From the NCBI GenBank assembly GCA_049513715.1, contig JBEKVV010000001.1, forward strand, positions 544,001 through 608,000: DNA of 64,000 nt, in the 5' to 3' direction. Below are positions 33,001 through 36,000 of the stretch, one piece after another. The position numbers are program-made. The stretch comes from Candidatus Bathyarchaeia archaeon. Lineage in GTDB: Archaea > Thermoproteota > Bathyarchaeia > 40CM-2-53-6. Numbering within the stretch: the stretch's first letter is position 1; every line of letters begins with the position of its first letter.

Positions 33001-36000
33001 CGGCATGGATTCAACAGCCATGTTGAGTATGGCTTCGTGCAGTGGCGCACGGTCCTTCAGTGTCTCCACTTTGTCGTTTAAGTATGCGTCAACAACGTCT
33101 GAGAACTTCACACCCTTCTCCTTCGCGATTTCCGCGTTAAACCCCCACCGATCCTTGGCGGACCCCATTGCAACAGTGTTGCTTGCGAAGCCTACCTTCC
33201 ACTTTTCCCGGTATTCAGGTTCCGCGTAAAGTTCAATGAGACGGTTGAACTCGGTGATAATTCTACCAATGCGCTCCTGGATCTGCTCAGAGTTCAACCG
33301 TAGCTCCTTGATTAGGCGGTCAATCTTGTTGATGTATAAGACCGGTCGAACCCGCTCTTCCAATGCCTGGCGGGTTACCGTTTCGGTTTGAACCATGATT
33401 TCCTCGACGGAGTCGACCACGACAACTGCGCCATCAATGACTCTCAGGGACCGGGTTACCCTGCCCGAGAAGTCTACGTGGCCGGGGGTGTCGATGAGGT
33501 TAATGACGTATGCGATTCCGTTTCTCTCGTGCAGCAAGCTAATGTTTGCCGCTTTGATGGTCATCTGGCGCTTCTGCTCTTCCTCCATATAGTCCAAGGC
33601 TAGCGCTGTGCCAGCCATGCCTGGTGACAGAAGGCCTGCAGCGGCAAGGAGGGAATCGCTCATCGTCGTCTTTCCGTGGTCGACGTGGGCGATGATGCCC
33701 ATATATTCCGGACGCAGAACTCGACTACGCCTTTCGGATCTGGTCCTTGTTCGCTATGATCTTCTGAAGTTCCGTTGTGCTCTTGTAACGGACCATTTGT
33801 TCTCAACTCGACTTTGAAATTCGCGATGGCAACAAGGCTCAATCTCATTTATGCATTACTGTTGAAGGCCCTGTCAAGTCTCCGTCGGTTCGCGAACTGC
33901 TTTTTGCGTGTCAAAAGTCGTCGGGTGATTGAGCGATGATGCCAGTCGCCCTTGGTCTTGGCGCATTTCGCGGTGATTTCTGGTCGCGCGTTAAATACAT
34001 CAAACATGACAGTCTAGACCGAACTTTCAATGCGAACCATCTTCAAACTCTATTTGCTTCTTGTCCTCGGTATTCTGGCTTTCTTCGTTGGTTCAGTATT
34101 AGGAGCCCTTTCATCTGGCAGACTAGTGCTCTCGCAATCAATAGAATGGGCGACGGGCATAGTTGCGATAGCAGAATCAGTTATGGCATTCGCGATATTC
34201 GTTTCCGCCACACTAGATGGTACGATTTTTTGTGCAACAAAGAGCAAAACACTATGCACATATCAACGATGAAGTATTGAAACCGCTCACGACGATAGAA
34301 CTCGAAACTCAAACGAAAACTCCAGACATCCGGAAAATAGGCGACATTTACGGCTTCTATGTTAAACTTCCAAGACATTCCTACTTCTATGATGATGCGA
34401 TTCTGCACTTACAGCTATCAAACCCAACAGTCGCCAGCAACCTAAGCGCCCTACATTCTAGAGTGAGTGAACATAGTGCTGAAATGAGCGAAACAGACGA
34501 TTTCATAGTAACGAAAGTAAATGAGGCATTGAGTAGCCGTAAACTCGAATACGACGGCACGGGAAACGCATTTTTCAACATTATACAAATTCTCAGTGAG
34601 GGGTGGCTTCACTATATCCACCGCATGGATGCCTCTGTCGTGCTGCCGTGGTTGCGACGAACATATCCTCGTATGGATGAAGGTCGTTCCTTGTATCTAG
34701 CGGGCACTTTGGTCTGGGAAGAACGTACAGCGGGTGAAAGAGATAGAGTGGTCGAAGCGGTTGAGAGTCTAGCGGCTGATACTGAGATTTTGCACAAAAT
34801 CGAAGGGCTTGAAAGCTCGAAGAAGAAACTTGAGGCTACCATAGACGAAATTGTTGGAGAAGCACAAGAACTAAGCATGGCAATCGAAAGTGATGGCTAC
34901 ACCGGAAAAGCCGACTGCTGCCCTACCATCTGGCGACTGATTACGACTTACTGGTTGAGCTAGTTGGTTGTCTTGTTGTTGAAGTATTCGCCTAGTACGG
35001 CTCTTACGGTTTCGGGTACAGATTCAAGTTTTCGGGCTTTTCGTTCTTGCTCTAACGCCTTTACCATGTCGTCTGACATGGCTACCATTATCTTGTTCAT
35101 TGCCAAAGGCTACACGCCACAGGGAGGATAAGGGAGGGTGATGGCAACGTGCGTTGATGGGTCAATGAGTGGTCGTGATGTTGCGGACCTCTACGACGCC
35201 AATGATAAGAGATTCACAATGTACTCCTTAGAGGACTTCTAGGTAAGGCTAGGCGAGCGTACTGTGGGCTTCAACCTTTCACCCATCGTAGTTAAGCAAC
35301 AACTCAAACTGGAAGATCTGAAGGGGCGAAGCCTTGCGGTCGACGCAAACAACATGCTCTACCAATTCCTAGCGCTGATTAGGATGAGAGACGGAAGACC
35401 CTTCACGGACGCTCAAGGGCGCACAACCTCGCACCTGGTAGGTCTGTTGCTCAGGACAACTCGGCTCATAGCCGACTACGACATTCGGCCTGTCTTCGTT
35501 TTCGATGGGAAACCCCCCGAATTGAAAATGAAAACATTGCGGGAGAGACGCGCGTATCGGGAACGTGCAAGGAAGGAGTGGGAGGATGCCGTAAGCGCGG
35601 GAGATCTCTCGAAGGCGTGGTCAAAGGCTACGAGAATGAACTCGCTCACACAGGAAATGCAGGCCGATGCACGAACCGTTCTCTCTCTGCTTGGTGTACC
35701 GTTCATTCAGGCCCCTGAGGAGGGGGAAGCTCAGGCAGCGCACATTGCAGCTAAGGGCGATGTTTGGGCGGCGAACAGCCGAGATTACGATTCCGTCCTC
35801 TTCGGGGCCCCACGTCTTGTCCGGTACGTGACGATCTCAGGCCAAGAATTCCTTCCCAGCAAAGGCGTCGCTCGGCCCCTGATTCCTGAACTGATTGAGC
35901 TGCAGAGGTTGTTGGGCTCGCTGGGTATTTCTAGGGAGCAATTGGTCGACTTGGCAATTCTGGTGGGCACAGACTTCAACGAGGGTGTTCACGGGGTGGG

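Follow-up and report, generated by a model that had tools for sequence, protein, structure and literature searches.

Introduction

A pre-mRNA intron in the cbf5 gene of Crenarchaeota was reportedly described by Watanabe et al. in 2002, and in eukaryotes unconventional mRNA splicing is known from HAC1/XBP1, where it is regulated by stress and involves the endonuclease IRE1. The cbf5 intron is of the bulge-helix-bulge (BHB) type, measures 19–44 nt and is usually not a multiple of 3 in length, as given in passages of Yokobori et al. (2009, PMC2738675). In Haloferax volcanii, the HVO_1309 mRNA carries a BHB intron in its 5’ UTR, for which excerpts of Schwarz et al. (2020, PMC7714728) report demonstration in vivo and in vitro. 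A 2020 paper names in the passage concerned cbf5 as the only archaeal protein-coding frame known to be interrupted by a BHB intron and mentions one more example from a 5’ UTR, and the corresponding passage of a 2025 paper cites the cbf5 work alone for archaeal pre-mRNA splicing. Our literature search returned no paper reporting a BHB intron in EF-2/aEF-2; an earlier mention is possible, e.g. among ‘predicted introns in other protein-coding genes’ (Brugger et al. 2006).

Here we analyzed a window of 64,000 nt from a Candidatus Bathyarchaeia genome and propose that 28 nt at 33732..33705 on the minus strand represent a BHB intron in the aEF-2 pre-mRNA, which is very probably spliced. Like the cbf5 intron, this element is a short BHB intron within a coding frame, which is patchily gained and lost among relatives, and the cbf5 case likewise concerns lineages with a two-subunit splicing endonuclease (passages of PMC2738675); the source genome has a 19-nt cbf5 insert, too. 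The two cases differ in that the host gene is here an essential translation GTPase, in which the insert lies 22 codons from the start and splits the Asn codon preceding the P-loop. Further differences are the use of two alternative sites in different lineages, the occurrence in several classes of the phylum and a stop at a fixed codon. Splicing of cbf5 was shown experimentally, whereas that of aEF-2 is predicted from DNA. With HVO_1309 the locus shares an mRNA as substrate of the tRNA-splicing endonuclease, but the intron of the former resides in an untranslated leader and was described in a single species (excerpts of PMC7714728), while the aEF-2 intron is located inside the reading frame.

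Archaeal tRNA and rRNA BHB introns correspond in the 4-bp helix between two 3-nt bulges, in the cut positions and in the enzymes EndA and RtcB; in contrast, the aEF-2 substrate is a messenger, its exon-exon helix is weak and joining of the exons has to preserve the reading frame. The HAC1/XBP1 system differs in its endonuclease IRE1, its twin stem-loops and its regulation by stress, and homology with the aEF-2 case is not implied. What both have in common, going by passages of two papers (PMC13149111, PMC4090602), is a short mRNA intron removed independently of the spliceosome by a protein endonuclease and a tRNA ligase with a change of frame.

Results

The aEF-2 gene is split into two frames by a 28-nt insert

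On the minus strand of the window, the N-terminus of aEF-2 (ATG 33796) and the G1 motif (ORF from 33702) are encoded in separate frames. The frame opened by ATG 33796 encodes MVRYKSTTELQKIIANKDQIRKA and closes at TAG 33727-33725. The long EF-2 ORF (31579..33702, 707 aa) uses another frame and begins with MGIIAHVDHGKTT; the GTP_EFTU profile matches it from position 6 onward, i.e. inside the domain. Removal of 28 nt yields ...KDQIRNMGIIAHVDHGKTT, and with cleavage 3’ of base 2 in both bulges (intron 33732..33705), ...QIRNMGIIAHVDHGKTT is obtained. The individual features are as follows.

33733..33796, minus strand: exon 1 of aEF-2; ATG 33796-33794, 21 codons (M...DQIR) and position 1 of the Asn codon, giving a phase-1 junction
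33705..33732, minus strand: putative BHB intron, 28 nt, canonical cut sites; assigned from fold, frame restoration and comparison of relatives
31579..33704, minus strand: exon 2 of aEF-2; opens with positions 2 and 3 of the Asn codon, followed by MGIIAHVDHGKTT and the rest of the frame to the stop; GTP_EFTU, EFG_III, EFG_IV and EFG_C domains
33735..33738, minus strand: exonic 5’ strand (UCCG) of the central 4-bp helix; comprises the final base of the Ile codon, the two initial bases of the Arg codon and their neighbor
33732..33734, minus strand: 5’ bulge AAA; predicted 5’ splice site after the second base, between 33733 and 33732
33711..33731, minus strand: inner hairpin; GGCGUAG (33731-33725), loop UCGAGUU (33724-33718), CUGCGUC (33717-33711)
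33725..33727, minus strand: in-frame TAG inside the putative intron; ORF 33725..33796, 23 aa; translation of an unspliced message would terminate after 23 residues
33707..33710, minus strand: central 4-bp helix, 3’ strand CGGA, intronic; seen in the minimum-free-energy fold and paired in relatives
33704..33706, minus strand: 3’ bulge AUA; predicted 3’ splice site after the second base, between 33705 and 33704
33699..33703, minus strand: weak outer exon-exon helix, 3’ strand; U33703 opposite A33739 and UGG 33701-33699 paired with CCA 33743-33741, separated by a G-A mismatch

The initial annotation had described an aEF-2 gene split by a 28-nt insert containing a TAG, with the N-terminus in another frame, and had stated that excision gives the universal EF-2 N-terminus. 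This layout was confirmed on the minus strand, and the restored exon 1 segment aligns with residues 4–26 of solved aEF-2 chains. The splice points had been put at 33731..33704; the canonical sites at 33732..33705 are shifted by 1 nt, but the product is identical.

Further evidence argues for coding capacity of exon 1. Among 58 distinct carrier contexts from the order, the exon 1 frame is free of stops in all 58, the other two frames in 52 and 35; the start codon is located exactly 21 codons 5’ of the junction in 56, and third-codon-position divergence amounts to 0.47 as compared to 0.18 and 0.14. Judged by third-position bias, lack of stops, the start at a fixed distance and homology to the solved aEF-2 N-terminus, exon 1 is coding, and both exons are under purifying selection. 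In 35/58 carriers, the stretch from the preceding stop to the G1 motif lacks ATG, GTG and TTG, and therefore exon 2 cannot stand alone in most of them. It opens with ATG in 19/58 carriers including the genus of the source genome, and for this reason some translation of exon 2 alone, giving an N-terminally truncated EF-2 from unspliced RNA, is conceivable in this genus. EF-2 is a single-copy gene, as the other GTPase matches in this 99.4% complete genome are only ~32–38% identical.

The insert and its flanks fold into a BHB motif that is maintained by covariation

The minimum-free-energy fold of 33690-33750 contains a helix, the 4-bp helix, the AAA bulge and the 7-bp hairpin. However, the fold of this locus itself is no better than shuffles (z-score only -0.84), and strict BHB-like motifs are frequent by chance, with 37,566 occurrences on both strands of the 2.79-Mb genome; thus, the single sequence is not beyond chance. 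Significance derives from the coincidence of the motif with the sole junction at which the conserved protein is recovered, and from comparative data on relatives. The case is accordingly a comparative one, built on genomes that are related and not independent of each other.

The geometry is canonical in the window and in 58/58 carriers, bearing out the earlier proposal that the borders fold as a BHB: two 3-nt bulges on opposite strands are separated by a 4-bp helix, and each bulge is located 3’ of its central-helix strand. The 5’ bulge reads AAA in 47 carriers, UAA in 7 and AAU in 4. The inner helix is strong and covarying, but the outer exon-exon helix comprises only one contiguous pair in most carriers and therefore the motif is relaxed on its outer side. 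Relaxed BHB motifs are cleaved only by broad-specificity endonucleases, as stated in a passage of PMC5829648.

RNAalifold, unaided by the BHB model, recovered the same structure, in which 5/9 pairs stay paired through changes on both sides. Paired cells amounted to 97.1% as compared to 23–57% with slid partners, compensatory cells to 54 versus 0–8 in the slid controls, and the covariation score was reached by 0/500 shuffles. In 57 sequences, 100% of the central helix cells are paired. The central helix covaries as well, with UCCG/CGGA and UCCG/CGGG and, in other lineages, UUCG/CGAA, UUCG/CGAG and UGCG/CGCG as variants. Compensatory changes were also detected at 4/5 aligned pairs of the inner hairpin, in keeping with the compensatory pairs previously noted there.

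A single cut rule restores the frame in all carriers

The cut rule comprises a 4-bp central helix and cleavage after base 2 of each 3-nt bulge. When applied to relatives, it gave exactly one frame-restoring solution in each of the 58 carrier contexts of the order and in genome G107 of another order. It also solved 3 metagenome contigs, two loci of family f29 and 15 loci from other classes, in 4 of which an additional formal solution without any inner pair was discarded. Overall, the frame is uniquely restored in 79 distinct position-A carrier sequences, the two family-f29 loci included, in which the rule yields Ala/Asp at the otherwise constant Asn and the cut sites are uncertain by 2 nt. Excision recreates the conserved motif ...R-N-x-G-I-I-A-H-V-D-H-G-K-T.

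The comparison sample of 76 distinct contexts consisted of the 58 carriers, 16 insert-free contexts and 2 deviant ones. This agrees in kind with the initial annotation, which had counted 25 of 28 loci with the insert and 2 without in a smaller sample. Insert lengths range from 25 to 54 nt and are not a multiple of 3 in 42/58 carriers (mod-3 classes 16/22/20), and all 58 inserts contain a stop in the exon 1 frame, so that previous observations on length and stops were reproduced. Among 21 further carriers, the mod-3 classes are 7/9/5. The stop occupies the same fixed codon in 54/58 carriers and in 20/21 of the further ones, i.e. in 74/79, alternating among TAG, TAA and TGA. All 16 insert-free contexts (genera g10, g11 and g12; G074) read ...QIRN(I/L/M/T)GIIAH in one frame at the predicted junction, in line with the pattern Q-I/V-R-N-x-G-I for insert-free relatives (Q-I/V-R-N-I/T-G-I in the initial annotation), and the EF-2 N-terminus is uninterrupted in 16/16 distant archaeal loci. 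As for cbf5, a short BHB insert breaks a conserved ORF, and insert-free orthologues are present in relatives (58 vs. 16 contexts).

The insert occurs in several classes and at two sites

The insert was found in the order to which it had been assigned, but is not confined to it: it is also present in two further families of the same class and in five that belong to other classes. A strict DNA pattern matched 56/401 genomes of the class, all within the order, and gave 0 control matches; the pattern misses carriers with other central helices and hence understates the range. In two families, a second insertion site is present (..IIAH|VDHGK..). Presence of the insert in other classes of the phylum, the second site in two families and the stop at a fixed codon (74/79) are new observations. 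Metagenome contigs were also searched for a spliced, cDNA-like contig. The matches listed included 3 close relatives (92–96% identical), all of them insert-bearing, and no insert-free near-identical contig. A search for RNA sequencing runs covering 31500-34100 listed none.

Some relatives carry inteins a few codons downstream. Intron and intein occur together in G001 and probably also in G080. The 28-nt insert itself is not an intein, which needs a stop-free in-frame splicing domain, as it shifts the frame and holds a TAG. It is also far too short for the ribozyme of a group I or group II intron; an Rfam scan for curated RNA families gave nothing relevant, the only match being ALIL on the opposite strand at 13.3 bits, as compared to a gathering score of 50.

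The genome encodes the splicing machinery and a second BHB-interrupted gene

The genome encodes a single RtcB (578 bits) as well as two EndA paralogues (186 and 192 aa; regions C1:841621-841866 and C4:134780-135019), both of which comprise an N-terminal and a catalytic domain, and Aragorn detected introns in 28/33 tRNA genes. As internal positive control we used cbf5 of this genome, from which the same rule takes out a 19-nt BHB insert, restoring GHGGTLDPKVTGVLP. A de novo genome-wide screen reduced the 37,566 strict motifs to 2,632 frame-joining candidates and to 92 or 407 after filters, most of which look like ordinary gene boundaries. With thresholds of L >= 20 and an inner helix >= 6, the screen missed the real 19-nt cbf5 insert and is no guide to the number of interrupted genes.

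Discussion

Proposed splicing of the aEF-2 message

According to our model, the exonic UCCG would pair with the intronic CGGA in the transcript, generating two 3-nt bulges on opposite strands, 4 bp apart and next to the 7-bp intron hairpin. The tRNA-splicing endonuclease, presumably an α2-β2 assembly of the two EndA paralogues, would cleave after the second base of each bulge. Ligation of the exons by RtcB would then create the Asn codon A|AU, and the mature mRNA would encode full-length EF-2 (...DQIR-N-MGIIAHVDHGKTT). On the unspliced message, ribosomes are expected to halt at the TAG after 23 residues. The previously suggested dependence of EF-2 on mRNA splicing by EndA and RtcB is inferred here as well; both enzymes are encoded.

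Alternative explanations

It is very improbable that exon 2, starting at ATG 33702, is the whole gene and that the upstream 23-codon frame with its hairpin serves as a leader peptide or an attenuator-like 5’ element. Leader-peptide control is known to employ short upstream ORFs ending with a stop within a hairpin, an arrangement which the locus resembles, and exon 2 does open with ATG in the genus (19/58 carriers), the start picked by gene callers. Yet, 35/58 carriers lack any possible start codon for exon 2, and the ORF from 33702 begins inside GTP_EFTU at profile position 6. Moreover, the ‘leader’ shows homology to the N-terminus of EF-2, which is contiguous in the 16 insert-free contexts and in 16/16 distant archaeal loci, and can be aligned with solved structures. 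Signals known for bypassing and frameshifting combine an in-frame stop with a hairpin past a take-off site. The insert, with an in-frame stop and then a hairpin after a take-off-like site, resembles such signals, so that translational recoding, i.e. programmed frameshifting, stop read-through or bypassing (hopping) past the insert without RNA splicing, had to be weighed as well, also given the precedent that cbf5 introns were at first mistaken for frameshifting (passage of PMC2738675). However, all three mod-3 classes are represented among the insert lengths (16/22/20 of 58; 7/9/5 of 21), thus no single shift works, and the frame relation of the two ORFs varies, which does not fit a programmed frameshift or bypass site. 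Read-through would place 8–18 unconserved residues before the P-loop, and the Asn codon arises only through joining of A|AU. The features that are conserved and covary are exactly the 4-bp helix and the 3-nt bulges of an endonuclease substrate, and we consider recoding exceedingly unlikely.

Single frameshifts are frequent in metagenome-assembled genomes such as these, raising the question of an assembly or sequencing error or of a pseudogene broken by a small insertion. The probability of this is negligible, as the insert interrupts the same codon in 79 distinct position-A carrier sequences, which stem from many independent assemblies and represent several families and classes, and also in 3 unrelated metagenome contigs. 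In addition, the gene in question is the sole EF-2 orthologue of a 99.4% complete genome, and both exons are under purifying selection.

Implications

Splicing of the EF-2 message might in addition serve as a checkpoint, tying EF-2 output to the EndA/RtcB capacity that matures the heavily interrupted tRNAs; or, in a related reading, the first 35 codons might act as a landing pad on which mobile intervening elements settle repeatedly. We offer these ideas tentatively and regard them as rather unlikely. If the checkpoint existed, elongation capacity would be coupled to tRNA supply, representing an archaeal analogue of regulated HAC1/XBP1 splicing, and a stop fixed in position but varying in type would keep unspliced messages harmless. 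If the landing pad did, with two BHB-intron sites and an intein site, BHB introns could still insert into mRNA genes.

With BHB splicing of the aEF-2 message as the preferred reading, aEF-2 would be the second host gene with such an intron in frame, an essential, single-copy and universally conserved one, in which the intron extends over several families and classes and two sites. Gene callers clip 22 residues off EF-2, a standard phylogenetic marker, in all these genomes, and similar inserts are probably hidden in other genes. As transcription and translation share one compartment, the question arises how cells are protected from translating unspliced messages, for which the stop at a fixed codon provides a testable handle. 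The predicted tRNA-type mRNA splicing would thereby belong to the normal course of gene expression in a large uncultured archaeal group, beyond a single-gene curiosity.

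The aEF-2 gene is split by a 28-nt insert

The coding sequence of aEF-2 is distributed over two reading frames of the minus strand. The upstream frame starts with ATG at 33796; its first 21 codons translate into a peptide similar to the beginning of archaeal EF-2 and are followed by K-A-stop (TAG, 33727-33725). The long EF-2 ORF (31579..33702, 707 aa) lies in another frame, begins with MGIIAHVDHGKTT and opens within the GTP-binding domain, as its Pfam GTP_EFTU match sets in at profile position 6. Just two of all deletions tried round the gap, 33732..33705 and 33731..33704, recovered ...KDQIRNMGIIAHVDHGKTT; both remove 28 nt and yield the identical product. 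Thus, the initial annotation was correct in placing a 28-nt insert between the N-terminus of aEF-2 and an ORF in another frame. The window genome has one EF-2 gene, as compared to two EF-2-like matches (~70% and ~61% identity to the query) in many members of the class from families f17 and f20. Two such matches are also present in the Bathyarchaeota MAG G402, which suggests a second EF-2 paralogue in these genomes.

A minimum-free-energy (MFE) fold was computed for 33690-33750 of the minus strand.

Features of the aEF-2 gene and of the MFE fold of its insert
33733..33796, minus strand: exon 1
33705..33732, minus strand: putative bulge-helix-bulge (BHB) intron
31579..33704, minus strand: exon 2
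33738-33735, minus strand: central helix, 5' strand UCCG (exon)
33734-33732, minus strand: bulge AAA
minus strand: 7-bp hairpin GGCGUAG/CUGCGUC with loop UCGAGUU
33710-33707, minus strand: central helix, 3' strand CGGA (intron)
33706-33704, minus strand: unpaired AUA, ahead of a weak exon-exon helix

The predicted geometry, i.e. a 4-bp helix and two 3-nt bulges each located 3' of its strand, is that of the BHB of archaeal tRNA introns. In a canonical BHB, each bulge is cut between its second and third base. Accordingly placed cuts end exon 1 at 33733, start exon 2 at 33704 and form the Asn codon as A|AU. Taken alone, this fold is weak evidence, because it is no better than those of shuffled sequences (z -0.84) and strict BHB-like motifs are abundant in the genome (37,566 in 2.79 Mb according to a motif scan).

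Conservation and covariation of the insert

EF-2 was matched in 78 of the 105 genomes of the order by protein search. The search loci, 40 fetched regions and a few more provided 76 distinct 195-nt contexts round the G1 motif; loci without this motif, or with the motif less than 150 nt from the locus end, are left out of the set. To these contexts we applied a fixed rule, under which the central helix must have four pairs and both 3-nt bulges are cut following base 2; the hairpin is unconstrained. Exactly one solution giving [IVL]-R-N-x-G... was obtained in 58 cases. Sixteen contexts are insert-free, with ...Q-I/V-R-N-(I/L/M/T)-G-I-I-A-H encoded in one continuous frame; 13 of these belong to genus g10 and one each to genera g11 and g12 and to G074, a genome of family f6. 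Two contexts from family f29 were unsolved when Asn was demanded. In one g10 locus (L079, genome G023), the sequence upstream of ..KQIRNIGIIAH is unlike the usual EF-2 N-terminus (..FAESRRYKQIRN..), and the gene start may be rearranged or mis-assembled.

The central helix of the 58 carriers is UCCG/CGGA (52), UCCG/CGGG (5) or UUCG/CGAA (1), and in 53 of them the hairpin folds better than mononucleotide shuffles (z < -1.64). An alignment of 57 distinct carriers (MAFFT) was analyzed by RNAalifold, which without an imposed model arrived at an identical arrangement of central helix, 3-nt bulge and inner helix, with compensatory changes at five of nine pairs. On this structure 97.1% of the cells are paired, a share that falls to 23-57% once the 3' partners are shifted by 1-3 columns, 54 cells are changed on both sides as compared to 0-8 after such shifts, and the covariation score was matched by none of 500 column shuffles, all of which are figures that overstate independence owing to kinship among the carriers. 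Pairs at successive positions switch between A-U and G-C, between C-G and U-A, and among G-C, C-G, A-U and U-A, which is what a conserved helix would predict. In carriers, the Arg codon ahead of the junction is always CGN, since its CG belongs to the central helix, and it is AGG in at least one insert-free gene (L044 of G074); the intron therefore limits synonymous codon choice in exon 1.

An exon-1-frame stop is present within the insert of all 58 carriers, in 54 of them two codons past the junction codon. The same codon is a stop in 20 of 21 further carriers from another order, other classes and metagenome contigs (TAG 10, TAA 6, TGA 4), resulting in 74 of 79 for all carriers with an insert at this split Asn codon, subsequently designated position A (TAG 60, as in the window, TAA 9, TGA 5). 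That the site is kept while stop type and adjoining hairpins vary suggests that selection favours an early end to the translation of unspliced messages; alternatively, the fixed site may have a structural reason.

Could the gene be expressed without splicing? Recoding fails as an explanation, because the insert lengths (25-54 nt) occupy all three modulo-3 classes (16, 22 and 20 carriers). A leader-peptide reading of exon 1 can be rejected too, because exon 1 is homologous to EF-2 and start codons for exon 2 are missing: in 35 of 58 carriers there is no ATG, GTG or TTG from the upstream stop to the G1 motif. In 56 of 58 carriers, exon 1 itself opens with ATG, GTG or TTG at a distance of exactly 21 codons ahead of the junction, and its frame is stop-free in all 58 versus stops in 52 and 35 sequences in the other two frames. 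Met directly follows Asn in 19 of 58 carriers, which belong to the window's genus, and solely there some initiation on unspliced RNA (at ATG 33702 in the window) is possible. An artefact or a pseudogene can be dismissed, since the insert recurs over many independent assemblies, EF-2 is single-copy and purifying selection is evident; divergence per site in exon 1 is 0.47 at third codon positions versus 0.18 and 0.14 at the others.

The insert occurs beyond the order, and at a second position

The initial annotation described the insert within the order, where the 58 carrier contexts are found. A strict DNA pattern of the interrupted form matched 56 of 401 sampled class genomes, every one in the order, while the reversed control pattern had no match in this sample. 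However, the range is wider. The insert-free EF-2 N-terminus of G029 (P0001) served as a query. Among the matches listed (best 150 of 442), the majority of class genomes from beyond the order aligned stop-free over residues 1-156, and at least three appear interrupted: G107 (family f13; 31-nt insert, central helix UUCG/CGAA) and G163 and G145 (family f29; 30 and 31 nt). In the phylum sample, 134 of 141 genomes gave a match (full listing). Matches that begin no earlier than residue 19 or contain internal stops come, apart from three genomes belonging to the order of the window, from 22 genomes that lie outside the class and from G126 of the same class, which proved uninterrupted upon inspection of the fetched locus. 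Fifteen of 20 fetched loci (families f43, f45, f50, f56 and f60, all outside the class) carry an insert at the position-A codon that is solved by the fixed rule; in four, a second formal solution lacking the inner helix was discarded. In these loci the central helix is UCCG/CGGA, UUCG/CGAA or UUCG/CGAG, and the hairpins share no sequence relationship. G497, G498 and G449 display the same interrupted-type signature in the search. None of the 16 named loci from more remote archaea is interrupted (Nitrososphaeria, Desulfurococcales, a Bathyarchaeota MAG, DPANN and Euryarchaeota are represented), and the insert is present in all three close relatives among the metagenome contigs listed as matches.

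In G442, G435 and G421 (family f51) and G519 (f63), position A is read straight through (loci L220, L221, L222 and L216, respectively). These loci carry a 30-33-nt insert six codons downstream, in phase 0 between ...G-I-I-A-H and V-D-H-G-K-T (position B). The architecture is like that at position A: the central helix is GCCC/GGGU or GCGC/GCGU, the bulges are AUA and AAG, and the hairpin measures 8-10 bp. The fixed rule gave one solution for each of the four. The search signature of G498 and G449 is like that of these genomes.

With the Asn position left free, the f29 loci L196 (G163) and L197 (G145) have one solution each (central helix UGCG/CGCG), giving L-R-A-V-G and L-R-D-V-G with Ala and Asp replacing the otherwise constant Asn. 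Asp is tolerated at this place, as shown by the uninterrupted metagenomic gene L230, which reads I-R-D-I-G. A GCGA direct repeat permits a junction 2 nt away, which would yield Thr and Asn (worked out by hand); the cut sites given by the rule are candidate positions and the slid junction is also possible.

Splicing machinery and other intervening sequences

Genes for two proteins of the EndA family, of 186 and 192 aa, are present in the window genome, both comprising an N-terminal and a catalytic domain. There is also a single gene for RtcB. Yoshinari reportedly linked the two-subunit endonuclease to pre-mRNA splicing in 2006. The two EndA paralogues fit such an enzyme, which has been described as capable of cutting non-canonical introns (PMC5829648, PMC2724299). 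Aragorn assigns introns to 28 of 33 tRNA genes, its multi-intron calls and reported introns >1.7 kb being unreliable.

The cbf5 gene is split as well, TIGR00425 positions 9-75 and 70-322 lying in adjacent frames. The fixed rule takes out 19 nt (C1:415527-415545, plus strand, outside the window; loci L200/L201; CCCU / AGA / GACA-GUAA-UGUC / GGGG / UAA), restoring GHGGTLDPKVTGVLP, which we take to be the TruB/Cbf5 catalytic motif. This insert widens the range of cbf5 introns, because the published cases (19-44 nt) are confined to Desulfurococcales and Sulfolobales in Yokobori et al. 2009 (PMC2738675).

In G001, of the window's genus, a LAGLIDADG intein resides in the EF-2 P-loop, about a dozen codons from the BHB intron (L075; intein 547-2490, plus strand, after ..DHGK, Intein_splicing and LAGLIDADG_3). 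Long EF-2 frames also occur in G080, G023, G026, G033-G036 and G041; G080 (L076), with a BHB intron and a 1,332-aa frame, probably has an intein too.

Discussion

Schwarz et al. 2020 (PMC7714728) name cbf5 as the sole mRNA intron reported besides their own 5'-UTR case, and in a 2025 structural paper the cbf5 work is still the sole citation for archaeal pre-mRNA splicing. Unconfirmed predictions in other genes are mentioned, citing a book chapter, by Yokobori et al. 2009 (PMC2738675). Our literature search returned no publication on a BHB intron in EF-2, which may have been among those book-chapter predictions.

Fixed rule, covariation, insert-free relatives and the EndA and RtcB genes all support the initial annotation of the insert as a BHB intron, and we infer that the aEF-2 message would be spliced. 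In every respect examined, the insert behaves like the BHB intron of cbf5 and very probably is one of this kind, with EF-2 as a new host gene of greater consequence.
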